64,000 bases of DNA from a virus (taxonomy: Duplodnaviria; Caudoviricetes): the IMG/VR virus record IMGVR_UViG_3300017780_003104, positions 96,001 through 160,000 of that record. One strand, 5' to 3'. Within the stretch, counting starts at the first letter, position 1; every line of letters starts with the position of its first letter. Below are positions 34,034 to 63,637 of this stretch, piece after piece. The position numbers and the translations under genes were made by a program. The notes under the pieces are model-generated. The model was given only the letters and a program-made list of their open reading frames with translations, ran no database searches and was not told the origin of the DNA.

Positions 34034-34089
34034 AAATTGAAAATATAGATAGGTTGATTAATTAATTAAAACCGAAGTATAATAACCAC

Positions 34090-35181
34090 ATGAAGTTACC
34101 CGATCCAGAACAATTCAAATTCAAAGACTGTGTTATAGCAGGAGATGAATGTTGGTTGATTAATCCCGTCGATATGTCTACTAAGTGGGATGATGATAAT
34201 GCACGATTTTGTTCATGTATTGTTCGTAAGTCCGATAACTTTGTAGTATCGCAGGGATTTGGTAAGTTTACTAATTTCGGGGAACGTCCTGATTTTCAAC
34301 CATGGGATAACTCATGGAAGATTGAAGCAAGAATGAAATTAGATGGTTCTTTGCTTATCATATCCAAGTATAAGGGTGAACTTATCTGTAGAACCCGTGG
34401 AACTATTGATGCTCGTCAAATGGCTAATGGATATGAAATAGATTTTCTTCTTAAGAAGTATAATTTATTTTTTGAAACAGTAAAGAGGGGACCAGAAGAT
34501 CATCATATTTCTTATCTATTTGAATGGACCACACCAAATAATATTATCGTGTTGAGGGAACATAACGAACCGACCCTAACTTTAGTTGGGGCTGTAGTGA
34601 ACAACTATTATTACGAGTATGCGACCCAATCTTATTTGGATGACTTGGCTAGGGTGTATGGGCTTAATCGTCCACAAAAGTATGAATACAACTCTATCGA
34701 AGAATGTATTCTTGATGTTGCTGCTTGGAGAGGTAAAGAAGGTGTAGTGTTATATTCACCCGATGGTCAAACTCTTAAGAAGATCAAGGCTGACGAATAC
34801 TGTGAGCTTCACAAACTCGCAACTGGTATCAAAGGTATCAAGCAAGTTCTTGATGTGTTTATGGCATCACCTAAGTTTGTTGAACCTGATGATTTTTATA
34901 AGTATATCGAGACTACTCTTGATTTTGAGATAGCTGAAAAGTGTAAGGATTTTATCTATGATATATGTCTAGCGTATGGGAAGTATGTGGTTAAATCCAA
35001 TATAATCAAATCCGAGATTACCGACTATATCAAACCTCTGGATACTCGTAAAGAACAGGCTATAGCAATAACTACCAAGTTTAAGGGTTGGCAAACGTCT
35101 TTGGCGTTTTGTTTACTTGATGATAAGATCGTTGAAGATAAACTTATGCGTACAGCGTTAGACCAACTATTAGAACTATGA
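34090..35181 (+). CDS. T4 Rnl1-like RNA ligase
   Basis: FGKFTNFGE, KLDGSL, FEW, EGVV and KKIKADEY. Confidence 0.8.
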   Translation: MKLPDPEQFKFKDCVIAGDECWLINPVDMSTKWDDDNARFCSCIVRKSDNFVVSQGFGKFTNFGERPDFQPWDNSWKIEARMKLDGSLLIISKYKGELICRTRGTIDARQMANGYEIDFLLKKYNLFFETVKRGPEDHHISYLFEWTTPNNIIVLREHNEPTLTLVGAVVNNYYYEYATQSYLDDLARVYGLNRPQKYEYNSIEECILDVAAWRGKEGVVLYSPDGQTLKKIKADEYCELHKLATGIKGIKQVLDVFMASPKFVEPDDFYKYIETTLDFEIAEKCKDFIYDICLAYGKYVVKSNIIKSEITDYIKPLDTRKEQAIAITTKFKGWQTSLAFCLLDDKIVEDKLMRTALDQLLEL

Positions 35182-35781: not shown

Positions 35782-36243
35782 ATGAACAAAATGAAACTAG
35801 TATTGGGTGATTGGTCAAAAGATGGACATAATCAACATGAAACGATTATGGTTGAAACCAATAAAACGGTAGAAGAAATTCAACAAGGGTATAAAGACTC
35901 TTGTAAATTAACTACGGTGTCGTTTAATCATAATGAGGATTACACAGGAGTTGGGAGACACTATAGTATTTCCGATGATTACGAAATAGCTACTAATTAT
36001 GAGGAACGTCAAATTCCAGATAAAGCGAAAGAAATTTTGGAAAAATATAATGGATTTGATGAGATTTATGAGTTCTATAGTGAAGAAGCCAGTGAAGATA
36101 ATTTTACAAAACTTTGGTTCTGGTTTGTGAGTCTTTCAATTCCAGATTTGGTTTGGAATAAAATTGAAGATGATGCTCCAGTCATTAATGGGTTTTGGAA
36201 TAAGAACTTAAATGTTCAATTTGGATATGGTTTGTATTGGTAA
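35782..36243 (+). CDS. Hypothetical protein
   Basis: Motif-headed; GDWSKDGH...GYGL. Confidence 0.65.
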   Translation: MNKMKLVLGDWSKDGHNQHETIMVETNKTVEEIQQGYKDSCKLTTVSFNHNEDYTGVGRHYSISDDYEIATNYEERQIPDKAKEILEKYNGFDEIYEFYSEEASEDNFTKLWFWFVSLSIPDLVWNKIEDDAPVINGFWNKNLNVQFGYGLYW

Positions 36244-36267
36244 TTAAAACCGAACTATAATAGCGGC

Positions 36268-37500
36268 ATGGCAACTGAAAAAGTAAGACTAGTATTTTCT
36301 GACTTGGGATGTAATAGTTACAAGTATTGGGATGGTGAGCTACACGATGATGGTCGAGTAATATCAACTTTTGGCGTTGTTGGTGCAAAGAACCCACAAT
36401 CAAAGGATTTTGGTATTGTTGGTAGATCGTTCTTTGATAAGAAGATTCGTGAGAAGGAACGTAAGGGATATGAACGCGCTAAAGTACTAATGGAAGGTGC
36501 CACTACAGTAGTCAACAAATCATCCCTTGCTGATATCGCATTAAGTCAAATTAAACTGTCTGATACCAGTCTTAAAACTCTTGTTAAACGACTGGCTGAT
36601 AGCAATGTCCATAAGATCACTAATTCGACCAGTATTAGTTTTGATAATGGAATGTTCCAAACCCCATTGGGTATTGTTACCAAAGAGGGGATATCCGATG
36701 CTAGACTGTTACTGGATTTCTTCTTCAAAAATATTAAGAAGAATGGTCAAGATGATTTCAATGAAAAGATTGATTCATATCTTCGAATTATCCCAAGACC
36801 TAAAGGTAATGGATTACACTATGAAGACATTTTTCCGACATTGGAATCCGTCCAAAAAGAATCAGATGTTTTGGATGCTCTTGATAATAGTGTTGAACTT
36901 GCCATGAAACCAAAGGACGATGGAACGTCGAAGGTGGAAAGTGTGTTTAACCTTAATATGGCTATCGTGGAAGATGATAAGATTATCAAAGCGATTAAAG
37001 ATTGGTATACTAGGACCAATAAGGCAATGCATAATTACACATCGATCAAAATTGCTAATATTTACGGTGTCGATATCGTAGATTACAATAAGAATTTTAA
37101 ACAAGATGATAAAAACATCATTGAAGTTTGGCATGGTAGTGGTCAATCAAATATTCTTAGTATCTTGAAGTCTGGATTGTTCTGTAGCCCACCTAGTACT
37201 GCCGCTATTGCTGGTAAGATGTTTGGTAATGGTGTATACGGTTCCAAAACATCATCTAAAAGTTTAGGATATAGTCTTGGTAGATGGGGTCAGGGAAAAG
37301 GTGAAAGTGGTTGGCTTTTTGTTTGCGACTTCGCTATGGGAAATCCGTATTACCCGAATACCAGAGGTGGCTTAAACAAGATTCCTGATGGATATCATAG
37401 TTGTTGGGCATTACCTGAAAAAACAGGCTTGCTAAATGATGAACTCATCGTATACTCCGAAAAGCAGATCAAAATTAAATTTCTCGTAGAACTAAAATAA
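36268..37500 (+). CDS. WGR-domain PARP-like ADP-ribosyltransferase
   Basis: N-terminal WGR-like domain, helical regulatory region, catalytic H-Y-E triad (WHGS, FGNGVY, NDELIVY). Confidence 0.88.
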   Translation: MATEKVRLVFSDLGCNSYKYWDGELHDDGRVISTFGVVGAKNPQSKDFGIVGRSFFDKKIREKERKGYERAKVLMEGATTVVNKSSLADIALSQIKLSDTSLKTLVKRLADSNVHKITNSTSISFDNGMFQTPLGIVTKEGISDARLLLDFFFKNIKKNGQDDFNEKIDSYLRIIPRPKGNGLHYEDIFPTLESVQKESDVLDALDNSVELAMKPKDDGTSKVESVFNLNMAIVEDDKIIKAIKDWYTRTNKAMHNYTSIKIANIYGVDIVDYNKNFKQDDKNIIEVWHGSGQSNILSILKSGLFCSPPSTAAIAGKMFGNGVYGSKTSSKSLGYSLGRWGQGKGESGWLFVCDFAMGNPYYPNTRGGLNKIPDGYHSCWALPEKTGLLNDELIVYSEKQIKIKFLVELK

Positions 37501-37504
37501 AATT

Positions 37505-38044
37505 ATGAAACAAATAAACGCAATTACAGCAATCCTATTAGCACTTAAGAATATTAGAAACGTGCAATTTTCGATATATAATATCACCCTCGAAATTCGT
37601 GATCAGATGTATCTCGGAACCTACCAAATAGATTACACCAATTTCATTTCCCATGCGGAAGTCAAGAAGAATTTTGAGGAATTGGAATTGATGGGTCTTT
37701 TAGATGATTACACAGTAAGTCATAATGTTGATGGTTATAGACTGTATCAATTGAAACAAGAAATGGTAAACATTCCAGATGCTTCTGTGCCAACTCCAAT
37801 ACAATCCGCATTGGTTAGAGTTCAAGCAATTAGTCGTGCTAGTGTTATCCCAATGGATATTCAGAAGAAAATTTATACATACCTTAAAGGTAATGGATCG
37901 GTTTCCATGAAGCAGATTCAATCTCGCCTCAAGAATCAACCTTATACATGTAAGGATATTAAAAACTTTTTGGCCCAATTACAATTGATTGATCCTAATA
38001 CTACATCACTACCTGATAGCCAAGCTAAAACAATTAAAATCTAA
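37505..38044 (+). CDS. Hypothetical protein
   Basis: 179-aa ORF. Confidence 0.65.
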   Translation: MKQINAITAILLALKNIRNVQFSIYNITLEIRDQMYLGTYQIDYTNFISHAEVKKNFEELELMGLLDDYTVSHNVDGYRLYQLKQEMVNIPDASVPTPIQSALVRVQAISRASVIPMDIQKKIYTYLKGNGSVSMKQIQSRLKNQPYTCKDIKNFLAQLQLIDPNTTSLPDSQAKTIKI

Positions 38045-38230
38045 TATTATGAGAAACCTTAAAAAAAGATGGAGTGATCTCATATGGTATGAAAAGTTAG
38101 CAGCGACTCCCGGTGTTATTATCGTTGGATGTTCAGTAGTTGCAATATCACCAGTCTTGCTTTTTATGTATTGTATAATTATTACATTTGAATTACTGGA
38201 TTTTAGATGATTGTATGAGAGGATAATAAT

Positions 38231-38677
38231 ATGATTACGAAAATTAATGATGAATTGAAACAGGCAATGCGCGACAAGAACACGACTAAGTTGAATGTTC
38301 TTCGCGCATTGAAAACAGCTATTATGAATGCTTCTCTACAGAAGGGTAACGTAAATGAACCGTTATCGGAAGTTGAGGTTATTGGTATTATTAGGAAACA
38401 ACTATCACAACGACAAGATTCTATAGCTCAATTTGTTACTGCACAACGTAATGATTTAATTGCTACAGAAGAAGCAGAAGTAGAAGTCCTCAAAGAGTTT
38501 ATACCAGAGGATTTGTCGGATTTACAGTTAGAAACATACATCATCAATACAATTTCTGAGTTAGGTGCTACTAGTAAAAAGGATATGGGGAACGTTATCA
38601 AACGGGTTGCTCATATTGTTAATGGTCGTGCTGATAATAAGAAAATATCTAAAATGGTGGGTGAGAAATTACAATGA
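38231..38677 (+). CDS. GatB/YqeY-domain protein
   Basis: LKQAMRDKN...LRALKT, RQDSIAQF..AQR.DL and KDMGNVIK. Confidence 0.9.
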   Translation: MITKINDELKQAMRDKNTTKLNVLRALKTAIMNASLQKGNVNEPLSEVEVIGIIRKQLSQRQDSIAQFVTAQRNDLIATEEAEVEVLKEFIPEDLSDLQLETYIINTISELGATSKKDMGNVIKRVAHIVNGRADNKKISKMVGEKLQ

Positions 38678-38967
38678 AATATATCCTCTTTCTTAATAAA
38701 GCATGGGGGGTTGATTTCATGTTAATCCGAAGACTTGAACGTGAAAAAATTGAGTATGATTATGTATCCTTATCTGATGAAGGACATGTGGACACCGAGT
38801 TGTATACTAAGTATGGGATAAGATCTACACCTTGTCTTTTGATTCTTGACAACGATGAGGTGAGTGATAAACTCAGTTCAACAGACGAAATCGTAGAATA
38901 TTTAAAAAATGTACAAAATACTAAAATTCCCGTGGGAACAGAGGACCAAACACTTCTGGGCAAGTGA
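38674..38967 (+). CDS. Thioredoxin/glutaredoxin-fold protein lacking CxxC
   Basis: YDYVSL...KYGIRSTPCLLI; KAWG sits where CxxC is expected. Confidence 0.55.
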   Translation: MKYILFLNKAWGVDFMLIRRLEREKIEYDYVSLSDEGHVDTELYTKYGIRSTPCLLILDNDEVSDKLSSTDEIVEYLKNVQNTKIPVGTEDQTLLGK

Positions 38968-39568
38968 TTGGCATAACTTCCATGACCCTAAAACTTGGAC
39001 TTCCCCTATTTGGGAAATGCGGGGATATAGCAATGCTGAAGAGGCATTAGAACAAACTCTCAGGACAACCAATGAAAAGGTTGGTGTGGATGATACCTTG
39101 TGGTATCTTGGTGATGGATTTCTTAATGCCACAGATGATCAATGCATTAATTGGTTGAGTAGAGTGAATTGCCAAAATATTTACTATTTGTTTGGTAATC
39201 ACGAATCCAATATGTATAGGATCTATAAGGAACAGGTCGCGGAACAATATGGGATTGGTGATGCTGAGATTTATCCCTTGAAGTATAAGAATGTCACATT
39301 CTTAGGAAATCATCAAGAAATTCAAATTGGTAAACAGATGATTACCATGAATCATTTCCCTTTAAGAATTTGGCACAAGGATAACCGTAGTGCTTGGATG
39401 CTTAGTGGGCATTCCCACTTACAAGATAAAGGTCGTAGACCAGATGCACCTTTTCAAAAAGGTCTTGATTGTGGTTGTGATTATAAAGTGGTGTGGAGTT
39501 TTTTGGAAATTGAAGATGTAATGTCAACCAAATCGATTCAAATTTTAGACCATAATAGGACTAGTTAA
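38909..39568 (+). CDS. Calcineurin-like metallophosphoesterase (RNA-repair-associated type)
   Basis: ASDWH..H, YLGD, FGNHE, NHFP and GHSH. Confidence 0.85.
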   Translation: MYKILKFPWEQRTKHFWASDWHNFHDPKTWTSPIWEMRGYSNAEEALEQTLRTTNEKVGVDDTLWYLGDGFLNATDDQCINWLSRVNCQNIYYLFGNHESNMYRIYKEQVAEQYGIGDAEIYPLKYKNVTFLGNHQEIQIGKQMITMNHFPLRIWHKDNRSAWMLSGHSHLQDKGRRPDAPFQKGLDCGCDYKVVWSFLEIEDVMSTKSIQILDHNRTS

Positions 39569-39570
39569 AT

Positions 39571-39792
39571 ATGACAGATGATGAATATGAAATGCGAATG
39601 GGTAAAGTCCGTAACAAGATGACGCAATTAAGAGAGGTTGAGAATTCTATGGAATCGACATTTCCAGATATTGACATTTCAAAAGAGTGGCGTAAACTGG
39701 CTTTAGAAGTAGAGGACATGATAAATGAAATCGAAGTGGATGATTTTCTCGTAAATGGTGCGGGAAATACTAGTATAGATATAATAGAATAA
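39571..39792 (+). CDS. Hypothetical coiled-coil protein
   Basis: 73-aa ORF. Confidence 0.55.
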   Translation: MTDDEYEMRMGKVRNKMTQLREVENSMESTFPDIDISKEWRKLALEVEDMINEIEVDDFLVNGAGNTSIDIIE

Positions 39793-39801
39793 CAGAATAA
39801 T

Positions 39802-40032
39802 ATGAACGTAAATAAGCAAAAAAACAAACAGTGGATGAGAAATCGTGATCAATTGAAAAACCCAAAGGTATTCAATGTAACTATGGTTCGTAATCCAGAT
39901 GGAACATTCCACATGATTGGTGGGCAGAGTAAGGTTCTTGTTCGCAAGAATCAACACTCTAGCGAATGGGTAAACGTTGATACACGCGATCTTACTTGTG
40001 AGATGCGTAATAGTCGAATCTCTTCTTTCTAA
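39802..40032 (+). CDS. Hypothetical basic protein directly upstream of an ncRNA cluster
   Basis: 76-aa ORF. Confidence 0.6.
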   Translation: MNVNKQKNKQWMRNRDQLKNPKVFNVTMVRNPDGTFHMIGGQSKVLVRKNQHSSEWVNVDTRDLTCEMRNSRISSF

Positions 40033-40043
40033 GAAGAGATTAT

Positions 40044-40108
40044 AGAACCGAAGCAATAACACTGATAAAGTTAAGGTGCTTTTTCACCATTCGATATGGT
40101 GCGGTTCT
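40044..40108 (+). ncRNA. D-armless tRNA-like RNA with an Ile(GAU)-type anticodon loop
   Basis: Acceptor AGAACCG/CGGTTCT; T-arm CACCA-TTCGATA-TGGTG; AAGCA/TGCTT plus TAAC/GTTA stems leading to a CTGATAA loop. Confidence 0.6.
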
Positions 40109-40112
40109 CTAT

Positions 40113-40250
40113 TGTGGTGGGGAAGCAGTTCCCCCTAGTAGGTAATGAGACTTAGCTCTTAATGGTGAAGACCGATAATAATAACGTTTAAACATCGGGA
40201 TAAACTACAGACGCATCTATTAAGAGTTTCTTGCGGATAAGTCTACCACA
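40113..40250 (+). ncRNA. Multi-stem structured RNA, unknown class
   Basis: TGTGGT/ACCACA, GGGGAA/TTCCCC, AGACTTA/TAAGTCT, AGCTCTTAAT/ATTAAGAGTT and CCGAT/ATCGG. Confidence 0.6.
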
Positions 40251-40255
40251 TTAAT

Positions 40256-40394
40256 TTTAAGGAAGTCCAAATAGGTAGCGGTTACACTCAAGCGCGATGA
40301 GTGTGAGAGAAAAGAATGACAATACTCTTAGTATTATATCAACTTTCGAAACGGTGAAAATCGTAAATTGCGGGTTCAAGTCCCGCTCCTTAAA
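40256..40394 (+). ncRNA. Enlarged tRNA-like RNA
   Basis: Terminal TTTAAGGA/TCCTTAAA; T-arm GCGGG-TTCAAGT-CCCGC; 9-bp TTACACTCA/TGAGTGTGA hairpin with a 7-nt loop. Confidence 0.65.
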
Positions 40395-40398
40395 TCTT

Positions 40399-40606
40399 TG
40401 AAGTGTCGATGTTGAAGGAAACATATCGAAGTTTGTAAGATAGTTATGGAAAGGCGCATGGCCGAACCACTAAGAAAGTTGAGAAATCTTAACTAGGTTG
40501 GTAGCCTAGACTTACCATGTAGCCCATACGGAGTAATTGTCTAAACCTAATCTCGCCAGAGAAAAGTTACGGACTCCATAGTTGGTATCAAGCCCAACAC
40601 ACTTCA
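40399..40606 (+). ncRNA. Enlarged tRNA-like RNA with a multi-helix insert
   Basis: Acceptor GAAGTGT/ACACTTC; D-like ATGTT/AACAT; T-like GTTGG-TATCAAGC-CCAAC; internal TATGG/CCATA, CATGG/CCATG, CTAGG/CCTAG and GGAGT/ACTCC. Confidence 0.6.
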
Positions 40607-40634
40607 TAATTTTTAATTAAAACCGAACTATAAT

Positions 40635-41066
40635 TTGGTTATGAAACGAGACGAGTTACAAAAAATTCTAAGAGCATATATGGAAGAACATGGTGCTATG
40701 GAATTTCTATGGACTGTTGATGATGAACTTCTACGTCCAACTATTCATAAGAATAGACATGAAATGATTTGTTCGACTGGAGATTTTAGAGGTAACTTTG
40801 ATTATGATCGTGGGTTCTTGGTAGTTTCCATTTCAGTATATTGGGAAAGGGATGAATTATATTCCGTTAATATGCCTATTTTCAATATCGATGATGGTAT
40901 TTGGAGAGCTGTTTCTAAGAATTTTGACACTAAAGAAGAGGCTCAAGAATTAGCAGATAAAGTGGCTTCAGGTTTTGTTAAAAACTTTGGAACTAAGCTT
41001 CCAACCGAAGATGAACTAAATGAATTTCTTCGTCCCTTTGGTATGTATGGTCATTCAGAAGGTTAA
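40635..41066 (+). CDS. Hypothetical protein
   Basis: Motif-headed; the ATG at 40641 is the likely start. Confidence 0.65.
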   Translation: MVMKRDELQKILRAYMEEHGAMEFLWTVDDELLRPTIHKNRHEMICSTGDFRGNFDYDRGFLVVSISVYWERDELYSVNMPIFNIDDGIWRAVSKNFDTKEEAQELADKVASGFVKNFGTKLPTEDELNEFLRPFGMYGHSEG

Positions 41067-41090
41067 TTAAAACCGAAGTATAGTAGTGAT

Positions 41091-41324
41091 ATGAAAATCA
41101 TCACCACACGCCTTAGAGTCATGCGATACAATTATCGAAATGATTGGAAAGCTGTTCAAATTCTACTCAAATATTATTATATTTTTGGCTTTAAATTTTT
41201 CGAAGTAGAATTAGATAGGGAAGATGTTCCAAGGCATGTGGTTCTTGCCAATGCATGTTTTGGCGATACGAGTGGATGGACTTCAAAATTTATGCCCTTT
41301 GAAAAAGGAGGATGGAAAGACTAA
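41091..41324 (+). CDS. Hypothetical protein
   Basis: Motif-headed. Confidence 0.6.
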   Translation: MKIITTRLRVMRYNYRNDWKAVQILLKYYYIFGFKFFEVELDREDVPRHVVLANACFGDTSGWTSKFMPFEKGGWKD

Positions 41325-41325
41325 A

Positions 41326-41961
41326 ATGCAAACTCGTTATAAATACAACAGAACAAAACATCTTCCATGGTCCCCCGGTGCAACTTCAGATGATAAGATT
41401 CTTAAGGACACTTCTTGCTTTAATGGTAAGACGGTAATCATTACTGAGAAGATGGATGGTGAAAATTCCACTCTTTATAGTGATTATTATCATGCACGTT
41501 CATTAGATGGTAGGGATCATCCTTCACGTTCATGGATTAAACAGTTTCATGCATCTATTAAGAATGACATTCCAGAAGGATGGCGTATATGTGGTGAAAA
41601 CCTTTATGCAAAACATTCCATTGGATATGATAAGCTAAAATCATATTTCTATTGTTTCAGTATTTGGGATGATACTAACTATTGTTTATCTTGGAAAGAC
41701 ACTGTAGAGTTTTGTCAGTTGTTAGGTATTGAACATGTTAAGGTTTTTAAGACTTTGAAGTGGGACGAATTAACAGTAAAGAATTTCTTAATTGATTCTG
41801 AAAAAGAGGAAGGTTATGCTGTTCGTAATGTTGGTGGATTTCTATATGAAGACTTTGGAAGTAACGTAGCGAAATGGGTAAGACCAAATCACGTAACCAC
41901 TTCGACCCATTGGCTACATTCGGAAGTGATACCAAACAAGTTAATTAAAACCGAAGTATAA
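41326..41961 (+). CDS. RNA ligase family protein
   Basis: KYNRTKHLPWSPG, TEKMDGEN, CGEN, EGYAVR and AKWVR; ATG at 41326 is in frame with track ORF 41224. Confidence 0.8.
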   Translation: MQTRYKYNRTKHLPWSPGATSDDKILKDTSCFNGKTVIITEKMDGENSTLYSDYYHARSLDGRDHPSRSWIKQFHASIKNDIPEGWRICGENLYAKHSIGYDKLKSYFYCFSIWDDTNYCLSWKDTVEFCQLLGIEHVKVFKTLKWDELTVKNFLIDSEKEEGYAVRNVGGFLYEDFGSNVAKWVRPNHVTTSTHWLHSEVIPNKLIKTEV

Positions 41962-41968
41962 TCACTAT

Positions 41969-42556
41969 ATGAACATTTTTGTATTAGACGAACATCCCCA
42001 ACAAGCTGCACAATGGCATTGTGATAAGCATGTAGTTAAAATGATTCTTGAGTCTGCACAATTAATGTGTTCAGTGTATCATCTTAATGATATTGAAGCA
42101 CCATATAAGCTAACTCATAAGAATCATCCTTGTGCTATTTGGGCTAGAGAGTCTTTAGGTAATTTTAAATGGTTGTTGAGACATTCCAAGGCATTGACCG
42201 AAGAATATTATGAGCGTTATAATAAAATTCACAAAAGTGAAACTGTCATTAGATGGTGTGAAGAAAATATCAATAAGTTAAAATTTCCTAGAGAACACAT
42301 GACACCTTTTGCTCTGGCTATGCCTGACGAATATAAACGTGCTACACCAGTTCAATCATATAGAGAATACTACAAAGAAGGTAAAAAACATTTACATAGT
42401 TGGAAACGCAATCATCCACATTGGATTGACAAGTATATGGATAAGGAAACATCTGAAATGCTTTGGAGTGCAGATCCCAATTGTGAACATGTTTATGACC
42501 CTTATAATTATTCGGGTATAAAATGTAAAAAATGTAATGGGTGGTATTGTTTATGA
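41969..42556 (+). CDS. Pyrimidine-dimer DNA glycosylase / endonuclease V-like protein
   Basis: MNIFVLD..P, CDKHVVKMILESAQ, THKNHPCAIWAR and YREYY. Confidence 0.75.
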   Translation: MNIFVLDEHPQQAAQWHCDKHVVKMILESAQLMCSVYHLNDIEAPYKLTHKNHPCAIWARESLGNFKWLLRHSKALTEEYYERYNKIHKSETVIRWCEENINKLKFPREHMTPFALAMPDEYKRATPVQSYREYYKEGKKHLHSWKRNHPHWIDKYMDKETSEMLWSADPNCEHVYDPYNYSGIKCKKCNGWYCL

Positions 42557-42957
42557 ATCTTTTAAAGAAAATGAATCCAGAATATTTGCCAGAAAATGAT
42601 ATCTATATGTTTAGGTATGATGTGGATACATACTACAATCACAACACTAGTTTAGGATGTAGGGTATTTATAATTTCTTCAAAAACACCTAAAGGAGTTT
42701 GGGTGGTTCCTGATTGGACTAATTTACATAATGAAGAAGATGTTAAAAGATATCGTAAATTTGTTCGCAATGATGGTGTAAAAAGATTCGCATACGAAAC
42801 TAGAGAACTTGCAAGACATTCATTCTTATGTAGGAAAAGACGACATATTGAGATTCTAAAATCACAACTAAAGAAAGCAGAAGATGGGTATGTTCTTGCT
42901 GGTGGGACATTACCTATAGCAACTAGATATAGAACTTGGTTCAACGAATACGATTAA
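42553..42957 (+). CDS. Hypothetical protein
   Basis: KTPKGVW...KRFAYET..A..SF..RK pattern common in phage proteins. Confidence 0.6.
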   Translation: MNLLKKMNPEYLPENDIYMFRYDVDTYYNHNTSLGCRVFIISSKTPKGVWVVPDWTNLHNEEDVKRYRKFVRNDGVKRFAYETRELARHSFLCRKRRHIEILKSQLKKAEDGYVLAGGTLPIATRYRTWFNEYD

Positions 42958-42982
42958 TTAAAACCCGAACTACAATACAGAC

Positions 42983-43327
42983 ATGAAACTTGAATTTAAA
43001 TCAACTAAGGACATTTTACCAAAGGATCGTGAATTTATTCTCTGTATTAAGACAGATAGAAGTCTTTATTATGAGGACTCCCCACTTCCAGAATTTTATG
43101 AATGTGAGTGGTCTTGGTCTGATGGTGAAGGTGGACAACTATGCCATTCTGATGAATATTCTTTAGAAAATCCTCCAGAAGACTATCCATATCTTTTAAT
43201 TTTAAATGGTGAGGGATTTGTCATCTGGACGAATGAAATCAATAAATGGAATCCAGATATTCAACATTTATGGTGGGTTTTTCAGGAAGAGTTTAACACC
43301 ATTTGGAGAAACGCCAAACACGTTTAA
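42983..43327 (+). CDS. Hypothetical protein
   Basis: Motif-headed. Confidence 0.6.
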   Translation: MKLEFKSTKDILPKDREFILCIKTDRSLYYEDSPLPEFYECEWSWSDGEGGQLCHSDEYSLENPPEDYPYLLILNGEGFVIWTNEINKWNPDIQHLWWVFQEEFNTIWRNAKHV

Positions 43328-43354
43328 TTAAAACCGAACTACAATTAGACCACG

Positions 43355-45292
43355 ATGAAAACGGGAATCCTCACAACAAAGACCATCGCATCCGACGATA
43401 TCAAAGATAACAAGAGTATAATGGGTATGTCTGCTAAGGGCATGGAGATGGCACAATATTTTCTTCGGGATAAGATTTATTCTGATAAGGTTTTAGCTGT
43501 CGTTCGTGAATACATTTGTAATGCACAAGATGAACATATAAAGTATAATATCGACAAGAATGTTGATGTTAAATTGACCAAAGTTGATTCCAAATGGGTA
43601 TGGTCCGTTCGTGATTATGCTATGGGACTGAATGAATATGATATCCGAAATGTATTCGGTATGTATTTTGAGTCCACTAAGTCAAACGAAAATGATTCTG
43701 TTGGTGGATTTGGAATTGGGGGAAAGGCCGGATTCTCCTATACGGATACATTCTATGTCAATTCCCATTACAATGGAACTAAGAGTTGCTACGTATGCAC
43801 ACTTGGATCTGGAACTAAGGGTATTCCAGTTGGGGAGATTTATAAAATCTCTGAGGAACCTACTACCGAACAAGGTATTGAAATCAGTTTGGATGTTGAT
43901 AAGGATGTTAGTCAGTTCTCAAGGAAAACTCATAATTTGGTTGAATTCTATCTACCAAATGCCAACATACTATTCGAAAACGAATACTATTCTAAGGTAT
44001 ATGCACCTCTACAACCAGATACCGTAAAAACTGTTGGGGATTATGTCTTCAATACCTATACTTCACACCCATATGAGATATATAGTAATGATAAGTTCTT
44101 GATCCGAATGGGGGGTGTCATATATCCATATAAGTCATCATCAGTGAGAGTTGGATCATATGCAAAATGTATTATAGTTGATGTTCCAATTGGAATGCTC
44201 AGTATTCCTATCTCAAGAGAAAGTATTGAAAACACTCCACTCAATGAAAAAGTGTTTGTTGATATCAATAAGTGCTTAGATCTTATAAATGAAGAAGAAG
44301 GGTCCACAATCACTGTTCCAAAATTTGGTGCTGTATGCACGGGAAACGAAGAGTTTAATAAGACCTGTACAGGAGAATGGTTCATTCATCAGTATAGAAC
44401 TCGTTTTGAACTGACGAATACTTGGCAACGTCATATTGGACGTATTGGTAGTGGAGATGATTGTGATCATACATATGGGAAGGTATCGAAAGGTCCGGTT
44501 CATATCGTGTATCTGGTCCCAGATATTAAAAATATTAAGAATTGGCTGAAACGTATTCACCAAACATGTAAGAAAATTCAAGGTGTAGATTTCATTGGGT
44601 TTTCTTACATGAAGATTACAGACTATAATAAAATGATTGCTAGTATCCCTGCGGGAGATACCACTATCGACTTATCTGATTGTGTATTTGTTGATGTTAA
44701 AACTCTTAAACTTCCAAAGCTTGATAAAGGTAAAGTTGATGATACGACCTATTTGGTATATGACCAACATGGATATAAGACATATCACACTGCTGAGTCA
44801 CTCGATGCTATCGTAAGGAAACAACATTTCAATGATGAAGATCTTGAAGATGATTGGTATAACGATTGTAATGGTATGGATAAAGTTAGACTCAGAACCA
44901 TTGGCCGAGTATCCGATTATGGAACTAGGTCAAGTTTTTTCACTGTGAATAGTGTGAAGATGGTCGATTCTCTTGTAGAGCTTGGTTGGTTGACACCTAC
45001 TAGTCCTGAATATGTTTCAATCAAGGCTAAATTTGACGATGAGTATCGTATTAAACGAGAGATTGCTTGTGCGAGTAATTTGTTAAATACTATTTATTTT
45101 GGCACTAATGTCAAGGATAAGGTTAGGAAATACATTGAGAAGAGTCCACATAAGATCACTAGATTTGAAAGGGTCAAAGCTGCCATTCTTGGTGAGAATT
45201 CTGCCCGTGGTCGTATTTTGAAGTCTCTTCAATCCTATGATCGAGCTATTACACGAACAGATCTTCGCAAAATCCTAATGATGAAAGACTAA
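43355..45292 (+). CDS. rIIA: rIIA-like protein (GHKL ATPase N-terminus)
   Basis: IYSDKVLAVVREYICNA.D, RDYAMGL, STK..ND.VGGFGIGGKAGFSY; upstream of rIIB. Confidence 0.9.
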   Translation: MKTGILTTKTIASDDIKDNKSIMGMSAKGMEMAQYFLRDKIYSDKVLAVVREYICNAQDEHIKYNIDKNVDVKLTKVDSKWVWSVRDYAMGLNEYDIRNVFGMYFESTKSNENDSVGGFGIGGKAGFSYTDTFYVNSHYNGTKSCYVCTLGSGTKGIPVGEIYKISEEPTTEQGIEISLDVDKDVSQFSRKTHNLVEFYLPNANILFENEYYSKVYAPLQPDTVKTVGDYVFNTYTSHPYEIYSNDKFLIRMGGVIYPYKSSSVRVGSYAKCIIVDVPIGMLSIPISRESIENTPLNEKVFVDINKCLDLINEEEGSTITVPKFGAVCTGNEEFNKTCTGEWFIHQYRTRFELTNTWQRHIGRIGSGDDCDHTYGKVSKGPVHIVYLVPDIKNIKNWLKRIHQTCKKIQGVDFIGFSYMKITDYNKMIASIPAGDTTIDLSDCVFVDVKTLKLPKLDKGKVDDTTYLVYDQHGYKTYHTAESLDAIVRKQHFNDEDLEDDWYNDCNGMDKVRLRTIGRVSDYGTRSSFFTVNSVKMVDSLVELGWLTPTSPEYVSIKAKFDDEYRIKREIACASNLLNTIYFGTNVKDKVRKYIEKSPHKITRFERVKAAILGENSARGRILKSLQSYDRAITRTDLRKILMMKD

Positions 45293-45293
45293 T

Positions 45294-45542
45294 ATGAAAG
45301 ACACAAAATTCGCTATAAGACATAAAGAGTCTAAGAAATGGGTTAAGATATGGTTTGGTATTGGATTGGAAGGATATGTTCATTTGATGAATGAATTTCA
45401 CTCCGATGTTCTCTATTCCTCTAAGAATCTTATCGAAGAAGACTTATCATATGCCCATTGGGGCGATGGTCGTAAAGGATTTGTTGATCCTAAAGAATTT
45501 GAAATCATGACTATTGAGATAACCTACAAGCTGCCTGATTAA
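45294..45542 (+). CDS. Hypothetical protein
   Basis: TAA-T-ATG junction. Confidence 0.55.
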   Translation: MKDTKFAIRHKESKKWVKIWFGIGLEGYVHLMNEFHSDVLYSSKNLIEEDLSYAHWGDGRKGFVDPKEFEIMTIEITYKLPD

Positions 45543-45615
45543 TTAAAACCGAATTATAATGACCCTGTTGACAAATTGAAAGAATAGATTAAACTAATAA
45601 ACAGAAAATAAAAAT

Positions 45616-45639
45616 ATGACATACCTGACTAAAAGTTGA
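45616..45639 (+). pseudogene. Stranded original 5' end of rIIB (MTYLTKS*)
   Basis: ATG ACA TAC CTG ACT AA versus the current rIIB start GTG ACG TAT TTA ACT AA. Confidence 0.75.
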
Positions 45640-45661
45640 AGCGTTTGGACTAAATAATAGA

Positions 45662-46279
45662 ATGGGAATACATTCTAAATATCCGAATAACGCTGGAATA
45701 TACAAATTAACATGCACCAACAATAATAAAATATATATCGGAAAATCTCTCAGTTTAAATCGAAGACTTAATGTATATAAAAACTATAAAGTTCATTGTA
45801 GAGCTACTGGATATTTAAAAAATACCATATTAAAATATGGTTGGGATTCATTCAAAGTTGAGATTTTAGAAAATTTTGATATTCAAAACAAAGAACTAGA
45901 TAATCAATATCTATTAGATCGAGAATCATACTATATTGAGTTATACGATTCCACCAATCCCGATATAGGGTTTAACGTGTGTAAGTATTCTTTTGATGCC
46001 ACAGGGAGAACAATGCCAGAAGATTTCAAAATAAAAACCGGATTGAGAATGCGTGGAAATACTATAAATAAAGGACGAGTAATGTCCGAGGAACATAAAG
46101 AAAAACTTAGACAATCCAATCTTGGGAAACCAACTTCAGAAGAGACTAAAGAAAAAATTAGAAAGGGTAATATTGGAAGAATCCATAGACCCGAATCTAT
46201 AGAAAAAATGAGAAAAGCGAAGACCCTTATGTGGGAAGAAAAAAGAAAACAAAAAGAAAATAAACAAATAGAAAACTAA
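45662..46279 (+). mobile_element. Free-standing GIY-YIG homing endonuclease with NUMOD3 repeats
   Basis: AGIYKL...KIYIGKS, RESYYI and GFN; SEEHKEKLR, SEETKEKIR and PESIEKMR. Confidence 0.9.
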
Positions 46280-54673: not shown

Positions 54674-56329
54674 ATGTTTGAGAATAAAAGAAACGCAGAA
54701 GTCGTGACTGTTAAATCAGTTACTCGTAAGGAAGTTAACGCATTCCTAAACAATGCTAAAGCAGAATCATCCAAGACTCGTTCTGGTAACGGGGCATTGA
54801 AATTCAGTTCAAGTGGTGATTCGTTTACCGATCAGTTTACTAAGGCTGGTAAGTATAAGGAACCTCGTAAGTTCTCTCAAATCGCACAAGATTGTGAAAT
54901 GTTGTGGGGTGAAGACCCTCTCAAGTGTGTGAAGTTCGCATTGTTTCTTCGTACTATTCCTCGCGTAGTTAATCTTCCTGATGGAAGTAAGACTGAACTT
55001 CCTCAAAAGGGAACCGAGTTGAAGCATGAAGCAATTATGCGTATGCTTTGGTTGAGTGATAAGTCTCCTCAAGCATTCTGGAATAACATTCTATTGTTTG
55101 TTTCTCTTGGATCTTGGCACGATGTTTTCACTATGCTTCAATATGATCTTAGCTACAACGGTTGGAATAATCGTAAGCTTGATTGGGATAAGTTTGGTGA
55201 GTTGATTCTTGCTGGTCTTAACAATAAGAACACCTGTGATCTTATTAAGAAGTATCTTCCTCAAATCAAGTCTCGTAGTCAAGCTACGACTATTGATGCT
55301 CAATCCAACAATGCTATTGCTAAGTGGATTTGCTCTCTAGTCTTTGGTAACAAGGAAAGCGCATCTTCATACAAGGCTTATCGTAAGATCAAGACTAGTG
55401 GAACCGCGCATGATTGGCAAAAGCTTATCTCCCAAAAGAGAATGAGTGAATTGGATTTCAATAAAATTCATGGTCGTGCTCTATCAATTCTTGTTAAGAG
55501 TAAGTTCTTAAAGAACCAAGGACTTAGCGATAAGTATGCATCTTGGATTACTGCACCTACCACCAAGGAAGTTAAGTATACTGGATTCGTCCATGAACTC
55601 TTCGAAGGTAACTGGAAGAACGATAAGAACAACGAAGCAACTATCAATAAGCAATTCGATACTCTTGTTCAAAAGGCAAGAACTAATGAAGTTACTGATT
55701 TGATTGTCGTTCGTGATACTTCTGGATCGATGTCTTCAATTTGTCCCGGCACTAAGTCTTCATGTCTTGATGTTGGAAAGGCAATCGCTCTATACTTTAG
55801 TGAATTCCTTCAAGGAACCTTTGCGGGTCATTGGATTGAATTCAACTCTGATGCTAAACTTCAAAAATGGGTTGGTCAAACTCCCGTTGATAAGTGGAAG
55901 AATGATAAGTCAAGCTTTTATGGTGGAACTAACTTTCAAAGTGTTGTTAATCTTCTCGCTAAGATGAAGAAAGAGGGAACACCTGAAAGTGATTTCCCTA
56001 GCGGTATCCTTTGCATTTCCGATGCAGAATTCAATCCTACTTCATTAGGTAAAACTAATGTTGAGACTGCGTTGACTACTCTTCGTAATGCTGGATTCTC
56101 CAAGGCTTATGTTGATAACTTTGTGATTATTCTTTGGAACCTTCAAAATAGTTATTATGGTAAAGGGTCTGGTGAAAAGTTTGAGACTGGTAAAGAAGTA
56201 AACAACGTTTACTATCTGGGTGGGTATAGTGCCTCCGCAGTTAGTTTCCTTTCAGCTAAGATCAAGACAACCTATGATCTAATCAACGAGTGTCTTAATC
56301 AGGAAGTTTTGAATATGGTTGAGATTTAA
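54674..56329 (+). CDS. Ro60/TROVE-like (DUF2828-type) RNA-binding protein with a C-terminal vWA domain
   Basis: Helical N-terminus (KFALFLR, GSWHD, KYLP) and vWA MIDAS elements VVRDTSGSM, GGTNF and ISDAEF; TTGACA-16-TAAGAT-N6-ATG upstream. Confidence 0.72.
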   Translation: MFENKRNAEVVTVKSVTRKEVNAFLNNAKAESSKTRSGNGALKFSSSGDSFTDQFTKAGKYKEPRKFSQIAQDCEMLWGEDPLKCVKFALFLRTIPRVVNLPDGSKTELPQKGTELKHEAIMRMLWLSDKSPQAFWNNILLFVSLGSWHDVFTMLQYDLSYNGWNNRKLDWDKFGELILAGLNNKNTCDLIKKYLPQIKSRSQATTIDAQSNNAIAKWICSLVFGNKESASSYKAYRKIKTSGTAHDWQKLISQKRMSELDFNKIHGRALSILVKSKFLKNQGLSDKYASWITAPTTKEVKYTGFVHELFEGNWKNDKNNEATINKQFDTLVQKARTNEVTDLIVVRDTSGSMSSICPGTKSSCLDVGKAIALYFSEFLQGTFAGHWIEFNSDAKLQKWVGQTPVDKWKNDKSSFYGGTNFQSVVNLLAKMKKEGTPESDFPSGILCISDAEFNPTSLGKTNVETALTTLRNAGFSKAYVDNFVIILWNLQNSYYGKGSGEKFETGKEVNNVYYLGGYSASAVSFLSAKIKTTYDLINECLNQEVLNMVEI

Positions 56330-56918
56330 ATATCTTAAACTTTCTATCTAAAAAGAGAGTGGAGTCTTTGTAAATAAAGTTTCCGATGCGACCAACTTTA
56401 TCTAGAATCAATAGACAAGCCGACTGATTTGGAAAAATTTACAATGACAATAATAACAGCAAAATTAGAAGAGGTTGACAAATCTAAATTTCATGATTAA
56501 ATAAAGATCCGATGAGGTTTCGGTAGCTTCCTATGGCGAACAAATAAAACTACCAATAAGATTGCTTCAGCAAATATATTTTTATTTAAGGAAAAACAAA
56601 AGCAATCTGATAAGAGGACAAACTACAAATACAAAAAATCAAACGTCCTCTGATAAGAATAAGTAACAGCAAAAACAATAAAAAATAAAAGCAAATATGC
56701 TAAACGATGAAAGTCGTCCGGGTATCCTCACCATATTAGAGGTTGTAATATGGAGCTTAGAAGGGAGTCAATCTTAACTTATTCTGATAAAGTCATAAAC
56801 TGCAAATAAAAATACTATTATGCAAAATAGCCTGTCGGTGGGTCCGAGGTAACTAAAACGGTTCGATTCCGTATCTATGACTTGCATAAAATCTCTTCAG
56901 CAAATAACGGAACGTAAA

Positions 56919-56996
56919 ACTCCCATACGTGTGGTTCAAATCCCGCTGCTCACACTTTATTAAAAAGTGGGTATAGCCAAGTGGTAAGGCAGGAGT
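56919..56996 (+). ncRNA. Circularly permuted tRNA-like domain (unit 5)
   Basis: 3' half ACTCC-CATAC-T arm-TGCTCAC precedes 5' half GTGGGTA-TAGCCAAGTGGTAAGGC-A-GGAGT. Confidence 0.8.
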
Positions 56997-57048
56997 CCAA
57001 AAACAATGAGATTTAATAGAAATACTCCAGCAAATAACGCAACAAGGA

Positions 57049-57127
57049 ACCGTGTGTCGAACGTTCGATTCGTTCTCTCCCACCATATAAGTAAAATGGG
57101 AGGTAGCTCAGTTGGTAGAGCAACGGT
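57049..57127 (+). ncRNA. Circularly permuted tRNA-like domain (unit 6)
   Basis: ACCGT-GTGTC-GAACG TTCGATT CGTTC-TCTCCCA-CCA precedes TGGGAGG-TAGCTCAGTTGGTAGAGC-A-ACGGT. Confidence 0.88.
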
Positions 57128-57462
57128 AAGCAAAAAACATAGTATTTCGATAGGATTATATTCAGCAAATATACTACTCAACTGTTAATTGAAAAAAGTA
57201 AAAGTAATCCGATAAGAATTTCAGCAGCATAATATCGTAACTATAACGACTCTAAGGTAGCTTAGGTTTGGGAAACCAATACGGCGATGGTAGATAGGTA
57301 AACTAAGTTCTTTATAGAATATGTAAACCCTACGGGACGAACGATTGAATATTTATATATTCTTTAATGTGTCAGTGAAAGATGAAATTCTGATAAAATT
57401 AGCAACAGCAAACCAAACAAAAATTTGACTTTTAATCAAACAATAAAATGCTAATTTGATAC

Positions 57463-63562: not shown

Positions 63563-63637
63563 GGCATCGTAGCTCAATGGAAGAGCAACACCCTTCTAAG
63601 GTGTGGGTTGAAAGTTCGAGTCTTTCCGGTGTCACCA
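63563..63637 (+). tRNA. tRNA-Arg(UCU) with encoded CCA
   Basis: GGCATCG/CGGTGTC acceptor, GCTC/GAGC D-arm, ACACC-CTTCTAA-GGTGT anticodon arm, GAAAG-TTCGAGT-CTTTC T-arm, ACCA. Confidence 0.95.

Follow-up and report, generated by a model that had tools for sequence, protein, structure and literature searches.

An RNA array behind a 76-aa gene

The window analyzed here is a 64,000-nt stretch (G000:C1:96001-160000) of a 211.7-kb record from an uncultured lake phage with direct terminal repeats and ~34% G+C. It includes a neighborhood that is rich in RNA-repair genes, with an Rnl1-type ligase at 34090, a PARP-like gene at 36268, a YqeY/amidotransferase-like gene at 38231, a metallophosphoesterase at 38909 and an Rnl2-type ligase at 41224. 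Between the last two lies a gene for a basic 76-aa protein (39802..40032, + strand), whose family marks the slot of the element described below in related phages. The 76-aa protein had no sequence match in Pfam, PHROG or PDB and, by tblastn, none in deposited phages. Its AF2 model was confident (pLDDT 81.7), with no fold match in Foldseek (best E 0.34) or VIA (best Z 2.7). Our alignment of the family (A4) holds 21 members.

The 76-aa gene is followed by a noncoding gap of 609 nt without ORFs (40033-40641), flanked on the other side by a gene for a 141-aa protein (40641-41066). A perfect 11-bp hairpin with a 3-nt loop and no U-tract (AATCTCTTCTT / AAGAAGAGATT; 40015..40039, + strand) spans the stop codon of the 76-aa gene and ends 4 nt 5' of a 65-nt element on the + strand (40044-40108), with which the gap begins. 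Read directly from the sequence, this element is the first of four closed-stem RNAs in tandem on the + strand. RNA 2 (40113..40250) is a multi-stem structure closed by TGTGGTGG / CTACCACA, with counterparts in two related loci, L078 and L001, that have closing stems of 15-16 bp. RNA 3 (40257..40394) combines a 7-bp acceptor (TTAAGGA / TCCTTAA) and a canonical T-arm (GCGGG-TTCAAGT-CCCGC) with a large insert; it was called by ARAGORN at a lowered threshold only and has a homologue with a covarying acceptor in L078. RNA 4 (40400..40606) has a closing stem GAAGTGT / ACACTTC and a T-like arm. The 3' limit of the gap is a promoter-type motif, TTAATTAAAACCGAA-n-TAnAAT (40613..40643, + strand), with the start codon (ATG) of the next gene 6 nt beyond it.

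The units of the array are separated by spacers of 4-6 nt in the window and of 3-5 nt in L001 and L078. Their number differs among phages: units 1-3 are present in L078 and units 1-2 in L001, and a third locus, L080, has a minihelix only. The array is therefore built of separate modules and is not a single large RNA. No intrinsic terminator was found in 39000-41400, and no full copy of the promoter motif, which occurs 66 times in the genome in a very regular form (ATTAATTAAAACCGAA-n-TAnAAT, with the core AACCGAA), lies between 36259 and 40613. Given this, the array RNAs would need to be excised from a long transcript, and the simplest route to them, judged from these signals, would be for transcription to run on from the upstream operon and for an endonuclease then to cut them out. 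An intrinsic terminator was also considered as an identity for the element itself and rejected, as no terminator-like site was found in 39000-41400, its long arm is A+U-rich and the L001 homologue has no U-run.

Of the 22 tRNA genes of the phage, only tRNA-Arg at 63563 falls within the window, and the main tRNA cluster is ~50 kb from the element. A normal tRNA-Ile(GAT) is part of the set, as is a CTA suppressor, and an encoded CCA is missing in 15 of the 22. The phage also encodes a PF01743 nucleotidyltransferase of the CCA-adding family (91.6 bits). The suppressor raised the idea of TAG recoding, which we rejected since reading TAG as sense gave no marked gain in ORF length.

Fold of the 65-nt element

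A first-pass annotation of the locus had described a 7-bp acceptor, a 5-bp T-arm with a TTCGATA loop and a long arm carrying CTGATAA, and all three were recovered at the positions it gave. The acceptor-like stem P1 is formed by AGAACCG (40044..40050) and CGGTTCT (40102..40108) through 7 Watson-Crick pairs. Its 3' strand is stacked directly, with zero spacer, on the T-arm-like hairpin P3 (40085..40101), a 5-bp stem CACCA / TGGTG with a 7-nt loop, UUCGAUA, at 40090-40096, and P1 and P3 together make a 12-bp acceptor/T-type stack. Because the 34 nt between the P1 5' strand and P3 form a single arm, P2 (40051..40084), and not two, the element is without a D-arm; a UUU linker lies between P2 and P3. 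An encoded CCA is also missing, as had been claimed: the bases 3' of P1 are CTAT, a 4-nt spacer (40109..40112) that may comprise a discriminator C plus a trailer before RNA 2. The missing CCA says little, because most tRNAs of this phage also lack an encoded one.

The minimum-free-energy fold is a Y shape of -19.7 kcal/mol (z = -3.64), with 0 of 200 shuffles equally stable. The bare 7+5 shape by itself is not statistically special: a descriptor of 7 Watson-Crick pairs stacked on a 5-bp Watson-Crick stem with a 7-nt loop found 6 sites in the genome, including 2 true tRNAs, where 20 dinucleotide shuffles gave 2.6 on average. By an arithmetic estimate, requiring the T-loop consensus TTCRA as well reduces the expected number ~500-fold. 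It is the T-loop-type loop, together with conservation and covariation in relatives, that sets the element beyond chance.

The long arm is less well defined. P2 is A+U-rich (-5.1 kcal/mol, z = -0.95). Its lower helix, AAGCA/UGCUU, has pairing probabilities of 0.8-0.99 in the partition function of the window sequence; above it come an internal loop and an apical helix, which is weak and has two possible registers. In one, UAAC/GUUA with an A.A closing mismatch presents the 7-nt loop CUGAUAA (CTGATAA at 40062-40068); in the other, a 3-bp ACU/AGU helix closes a 5-nt GAUAA loop. The two folds are 1.2 kcal/mol apart, the pentaloop taking P ~0.85 of the ensemble and the 7-nt loop ~0.13, and RNAalifold also chose the pentaloop.

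The element was not called by ARAGORN at default, -ps95 or -ps80, nor in the default mitochondrial modes (-mt / -mtmam), while the mitochondrial search at -ps90 returned 11 low-quality calls in the gap, 0 of them matching 40044-40108. No Rfam family, including RF00005, mascRNA-menRNA and Y RNA, matched the element at the gathering score, nor did any at E <= 10 in a scan of 36000-46000, which takes in the whole gap (40033-40641). All three homologous elements described below have a 7-bp acceptor stacked without a spacer on a 5-bp T-stem, and all three have one arm between acceptor and T-arm, where a cloverleaf also has a D-arm. The loop conforms to UUCRANN in the window and L078; as discriminator base, two of the three homologues would have C (the window among them) and L001 would have A. 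ARAGORN's mitochondrial modes, the ones that allow for D-armless tRNAs, gave no call for the element even at the lowered threshold.

The first-pass annotation had also related the element to a Ro60 array, as a possible further decoy outside it, a link that found no support. The Ro60-like candidate, a 551-aa protein at 54674, 14.6 kb away, has a Pfam match to DUF7788 only, and no TROVE domain (PF05731) was detectable in the genome at E <= 0.001. A covariance model (R1), built from the three-way alignment introduced below, found no copy of the element near 54674-57460.

Conservation in related phages and variation of the slot

The same element lies in the same slot, after the conserved 76-aa gene, in two further phage lineages, one comprising L078 and L079, whose elements are identical, and the other L001, from the closest complete relative (G001; 206.6 kb, syntenic, with an RNA ligase 78% identical). 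The conservation in related phages that the first-pass annotation had looked to is thus borne out, with the fold kept in both lineages. In L078 the element stands directly 3' of the 76-aa gene and reads GAAACCG...TATGA-TTCGATA-TCATA-CGGTTTC. In L001 (L001:3647-3709) it reads GGAACCG...TGTTG-ATCATTA-CAACA-CGGTTCC, and a LAGLIDADG endonuclease gene is inserted between the 76-aa gene and the element. That gene suggested a group I intron, an idea we dropped because there was no Rfam intron match and the array consists of 1 to 4 separable units, depending on the phage.

In the three-way alignment of the window, L078 (= L079) and L001 (A3), 36 of 36 stem cells are paired, and compensatory changes on both sides occur in 7 of 12 pairs (2 of 7 in P1 and 5 of 5 in P3), statistics that come from three sequence variants on a very small tree. 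None of 500 shuffles reached this level of pairing and covariation, and slid registers paired in 33-47% of cells. Since related lineages keep the fold through matching base changes, we regard the element as a real small RNA element, and on the evidence of the alignment it is a genuine, conserved and minimal tRNA-like one.

Stems and loops vary in different ways. Between the window and L078, differences fall in 3 of the 5 pairs of P3 and 2 of the 7 of P1, and the loops UUCGAUA and CACUGAUAA are identical, which suggests that in this lineage a partner may bind the conserved loops. Both loops differ in L001, whose P3 loop is AUCAUUA; across the three homologues the equivalents of positions 54:58 are U.A, U.A and A.U (swapped in L001), and U55, C56 and R57 are kept. 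AACCG is the only part of the stems without variation, and with the two bases that follow it, as AACCGAA (40046-40052), it is invariant in all three. The invariance may reflect recognition of the acceptor stem at the RNA level, the obvious alternative to a promoter role.

The long arm, to judge from the same comparisons, is lineage-specific. The helix that presents the 7-nt loop is paired in 9 of 12 cells and the pentaloop helix in 8 of 9 among the three homologues, with one compensatory change each. In the window and L078 the CUGAUAA loop is closed by A.A or A.G and fits the pattern of U33, anticodon and purine 37, and the phage's tRNA-Ile(GAT) has CUGAUAA as its anticodon loop, although the remainder of the two RNAs is unlike. 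L001 has an unrelated loop without U33, and L080 has lost the whole P2 arm. Of the earlier proposal that the arm displays an Ile(GAU) anticodon loop, the 7-mer identity and its retention in L078 therefore stand, while the loop is absent from L001 and belongs to the less-favored fold.

Searches for further copies indicated that the element family is real yet small, as far as the databases sampled here reach. The covariance model R1 found no second copy in the phage's own genome or among 87 fetched loci; one own-genome match, at G000:80168 (E = 0.2), looks unrelated to the element. An exact-pattern scan of IMG/VR with the full 3' half of the element gave no match, and the pattern CTGATAA..TTCGATA..CGGTT recovered L078/L079 and one other locus, L129, where it is a chance match in G+C-rich coding sequence. 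A blastn search (word 11) of 39500-41200 against 50,697 deposited phage records, T4 among them, found no match. One metagenome scan with the protein alignment contributed more cloverleaf tRNA-like RNAs and terminators in the slot and gave no new close homologue of the 65-nt form. With blastn and nhmmer the whole gap matched nothing but the promoter motif in 69 loci, as did a whole-record search of four relatives.

What occupies the slot more widely was surveyed in 47 fetched loci with the 76-aa gene family. Several findings emerged. First, a cloverleaf tRNA-like RNA is found in the slot of L086/L114/L118, L095/L113/L124, L106, L103, L116 and L083. The tRNA-like slot RNAs are ~57-76 nt long, follow the stop codon directly and share the 7+5 stack plus a D-like hairpin, and the 'anticodon' loops of the cloverleaf forms are non-decoding (e.g., the 5-nt GUGAA or a 9-nt loop). 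The slot RNA of L103 scored 40.7 bits on the Rfam tRNA model, and ARAGORN labeled those of L103/L104 and L106 'tRNA-???'. Second, a strong hairpin or a true U-tract terminator fills the slot in L087, L101, L096, L105, L112, L108, L084, L097, L098 and L107. Third, L080, the closest relative by flanking protein (77%), has a 13-bp minihelix there, the equivalent of P1 fused to P3 with P2 lost, and because L080 keeps only this minihelix, the acceptor/T stack looks like the core of the element. Fourth, T-loop-type loops, UUCGAUA and UUCAAGA/U, recur among the slot RNAs. Lastly, stop-spanning hairpins equivalent to the one in the window occur 5' of the tRNA-like element in L078, L080, L086 and L118.

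The alternation of tRNA-like RNAs and terminators in one slot, together with the L080 minihelix, is the main reason for proposing a role at the transcript end. The same alternation could instead reflect an insertion hot-spot and not equivalent function.

A putative tRNA-like processing module and its alternatives

The element belongs, as a new member, among phage tRNA-like stable RNAs and tRNA-like processing modules. The more specific explanation that it acts as a tRNA-like processing module and a small stable RNA, marking a cut site in a long transcript, is the leading one, and we give it an even chance. The element keeps only the 'top half' of a tRNA, with one long arm replacing the D and anticodon arms. 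The four-RNA array would be transcribed by read-through from the upstream operon, from the PARP-like gene through the 76-aa gene, and the acceptor/T minihelix would recruit the host tRNA-processing machinery. A cut by RNase P on the 5' side of the element, at 40043/40044, would have two products. The upstream mRNA would be left ending in the 11-bp stop-spanning hairpin, which may cap and stabilize its 3' end without a terminator, and a stable RNA of ~65-70 nt would be freed. The 3' end of the latter may be set by a cut before RNA 2 and exonucleolytic trimming of a 3-5-nt spacer, and CCA may then be added by the phage's own CCA-adding-family enzyme or by that of the host.

Several observations argue for this processing model: the covariation across three lineages (36/36 cells, 7/12 pairs compensated), the fixed position after the 76-aa stop in all of them, and the placement of the acceptor/T minihelix directly 3' of the stop-spanning hairpin, a layout that recurs in relatives. 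The few-nt spacers between array units point the same way, as do the lack of a terminator in 39000-41400 and of a full promoter motif in 36259-40613. The PF01743 nucleotidyltransferase gene, together with the 15 of 22 tRNAs without an encoded CCA, is consistent with the addition of CCA, and phage T4 offers a precedent for one precursor holding an mRNA, tRNAs and small stable RNAs. Against the model, the alignment holds only three sequence variants, and the invariance of AACCGAA, the core of the promoter motif, is left unexplained. Moreover, the tRNA elbow is incomplete without a D-loop, and such minihelices are poorer substrates for bacterial RNase P. Nor can recognition through the T-loop be taken for granted, the L001 loop AUCAUUA being non-canonical.

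In T4, a precursor of ~1.75 kb carries the segB mRNA, eight tRNAs and the species I/II RNAs, with a homing endonuclease in the region (PMC2330249). The species I/II RNAs (RNA C / RNA D) resemble the element in being small phage RNAs in tandem with tRNA(-like) genes, and the homing endonuclease of the T4 region has a parallel in the LAGLIDADG gene beside the element in L001. The T4 RNAs are excised from an mRNA-bearing precursor, an excision that for the element we infer from sequence, and they lie in a tRNA gene cluster, whereas the element follows a protein gene in an RNA-repair neighborhood. With a length of ~120-140 nt, species I/II RNAs are also far larger than the element, which is only 65 nt long, has one arm only and shows no sequence similarity to them.

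Two non-phage systems work in the manner proposed above for the element, with a tRNA-like structure at a transcript end. At the 3' ends of MALAT1 and NEAT1, the ~60-nt tRNA-like mascRNA/menRNA lies directly 3' of a stabilizing structure, and in that system RNase P, by its cut, both generates the 3' end of the upstream transcript and frees the small RNA, to which CCA is then added (PMC8457004, PMC11693755). That system is eukaryotic and its sequence unrelated; it has a triple helix where the phage has a plain hairpin as cap, and in the phage the processing is a prediction. Plant mitochondrial t-elements, which consist mainly of acceptor and T-type stems, are processing signals that set mRNA ends in polycistronic transcripts (PMC1920247). 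They are organellar and served by other enzymes, whereas the phage element retains a third arm that is long and conserved, and it is one unit of an array with other structured RNAs. We regard both mascRNA and the t-elements, by this comparison, as analogues of the phage element and not as relatives.

Two further classes share parts of its architecture. D-armless mitochondrial tRNAs, such as metazoan tRNA-Ser(AGY) and nematode tRNAs, likewise consist of an acceptor, a T-arm and one further arm in ~55-65 nt. These molecules decode and have a proper 5-bp anticodon stem and 7-nt loop, whereas the apical helix of the element is weak, ambiguous in register and not conserved in L001. Bacterial and phage Y RNAs of the YrlA type carry a tRNA-mimicking module and are bound by Ro60/Rsr (review PMC7824862). 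They resemble the element as non-coding RNAs with such a module, here in an RNA-repair-rich genome, and differ from it in that the element has no Ro-binding stem, no Rfam Y RNA/YrlA match and no TROVE domain in its genome at E <= 0.001.

Phage non-coding RNAs are poorly charted, and the role of tRNA-like stable RNAs has been open since T4 species I/II. The element is a very small covariation-backed example, an acceptor/T minihelix plus one arm. The slot series suggests that phages may use tRNA-shaped modules as terminator-free transcript-end signals, a counterpart in bacterial viruses of MALAT1/mascRNA, and this natural series provides defined constructs for studying recognition by RNase P and the CCA enzyme.

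Among the alternatives, a purely cis-acting structure survives best, though we consider it unlikely. The Y fold and the hairpin would then stabilize or delimit the upstream mRNA 3' end, e.g., as a barrier to 3' exonucleases or a target for RNase E or RNase III, with neither tRNA enzymes nor a released functional RNA. The element's lack of a CCA and a D-arm is consistent with this reading, and so are the plain strong hairpins and terminators that fill the slot in many relatives, the 13-bp hairpin of L080 included. The exact zero-spacer 7+5 geometry, however, is kept in the three homologues and in distant cloverleaf forms, T-loop-type loops recur, and the tandem packing with 3-5-nt spacers resembles tRNA operons.

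It is decidedly unlikely that the element is an anticodon-loop decoy, a released RNA that shows a tRNA-Ile(GAU)-type stem-loop on an arm of tRNA length and titrates a host enzyme specific for that loop, such as an anticodon nuclease or a modification enzyme. CUGAUAA does match, base for base, the loop that carries the anticodon in this phage's tRNA-Ile(GAT), and L078 retains it despite the divergence of the neighboring stems; one compensatory change, A-U to G-C, falls in the 7-nt-loop register; in that register the arm would have ~11 layers by our own count, like the D/anticodon stack of a tRNA; and Rnl1-like and Rnl2-like ligases and a phosphoesterase are encoded nearby. But a 7-mer match is weak evidence, and the loop is closed by a purine-purine mismatch and populated at P ~0.13 against 0.85 for the 5-nt loop. 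Its helix is paired in only 9 of 12 cells, the L001 loop is unrelated and without U33, L080 has no arm, and a nuclease specific for tRNA-Ile(GAU) is not known to us, nor did this analysis identify one. The wider proposal that the 65-nt RNA is a purpose-built decoy, a CCA-tailed minihelix that bears the tRNA-Ile(GAU)-like loop on a tRNA-length arm and soaks up a host tRNA-targeting defense nuclease or a tRNA-modifying enzyme, strikes us as quite improbable. If true, it would mean an RNA-level counter-defense working alongside the phage RNA-repair enzymes, and should the conserved CUGAUAA loop be functional, the element would have a bearing on such counter-defense.

We find it very improbable that the element is a decaying pseudogene, a former tRNA(-like) gene that has lost its D-arm and become neutral DNA, notwithstanding the fuller cloverleaf genes in the same slot of distant relatives and the silence of the tRNA finders. 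The first-pass annotation had mentioned a degenerate tRNA, and the alignment contradicts it: neutral decay would break pairs, so conserved pairing counts against it, and there are 0 mismatches in 36 stem cells despite 7 changed pairs. The loops, moreover, are identical between the window and L078 while the flanking protein is only 77% identical.

Highly improbable, lastly, is a DNA-level signal in which AACCGAA and a weak TAnAAT-like hexamer form a degenerate phage promoter driving RNAs 2-4, a reading compatible with an RNA role: AACCGAA is the core of the 66-copy motif and AACCG the sole invariant part of the stems, but the match is confined to the 7-nt core, TTAATTAA is missing upstream of it, none of the three homologues' -10-like hexamers ends in T, and core-only matches occur at about chance level (32 found, 27 of them within full motifs, against 6.45 expected). 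Because pairs 1-2 of P1 covary, the P1 5' strand would in any case be present in the RNA.

The slot and RNA 2 in related phages

The site directly after the 76-aa gene varied in content among the related phages. In L001, the locus of the closest complete relative, a LAGLIDADG homing-endonuclease gene (L001:2857-3639; PF14528, E = 1.5e-9) follows the 76-aa gene and precedes the tRNA-like element, an arrangement reminiscent of segB within the tRNA cluster of T4. In L080, the closest locus by flanking protein, the same site holds a 13-bp hairpin alone, with a 7-nt loop (L080:~2740-2775), which is equivalent to a fusion of the acceptor stem with the T stem and is directly followed by the promoter motif described below. 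Counterparts of RNA 2, the second of the four arrayed RNAs, were found in L078 (3312-3404) and L001 (3713-3969), where near-perfect closing helices of 15-16 bp have AATAGAAG in common and are long enough to be potential RNase III substrates; by comparison, the closing stem of RNA 2 in the window has only 8 bp.

A promoter-type motif

The motif ATTAATTAAAACCGAA-n-TAnAAT occurs in 66 copies across the whole genome, examples in the window being 34062-34092, 40613-40643 and 41063-41093. In 47 of the 66, exactly 6 nt separate the motif from a downstream ATG, and some tRNA genes are also preceded by the motif. It appears to be a phage-specific promoter class that would yield leaderless or near-leaderless mRNAs. 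Three copies have TTGACA immediately 5' of the motif, which therefore forms the spacer there.

Phage tRNA genes and a CCA-adding family enzyme

Outside the window, the phage record (G000:C1) encodes on its minus strand a tRNA with anticodon CTA (196159-196232), an amber suppressor labeled 'Pyl' by ARAGORN. There was no sign of genome-wide TAG recoding, since open reading frames gained only slight length when TAG was read as sense. The tRNA genes for Met (94 nt, 166640-166733), Asn (91 nt, 195989-196079), Glu (87 nt, 199097-199183) and Pro (80 nt, 195896-195975) are oversized, suggesting insertions or introns. A nucleotidyltransferase of the CCA-adding/poly(A) polymerase family, also encoded outside the window (183209-183574; PF01743, 91.6 bits, within a 499-aa open frame), is relevant here, given that CCA is not encoded in 15 of the phage's 22 tRNAs.

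Protein genes in the window

A PARP-like protein (36268-37500) has a strong PARP catalytic domain match (E = 7.5e-25) and weak WGR and PARP-regulatory matches; its gene is the first of an apparent operon ending in the RNA array. For the 551-aa protein (54674-56329), Pfam returned no TROVE match, its sole match being DUF7788 (E = 5e-10, residues 344-525). The Rnl2-type ligase reading frame (41224-41961) overlaps a 77-aa reading frame (41091-41324) by ~100 nt, and its homology to the ligases of relatives does not set in before residue 38; the actual ligase start probably lies close to 41335, past the small gene.
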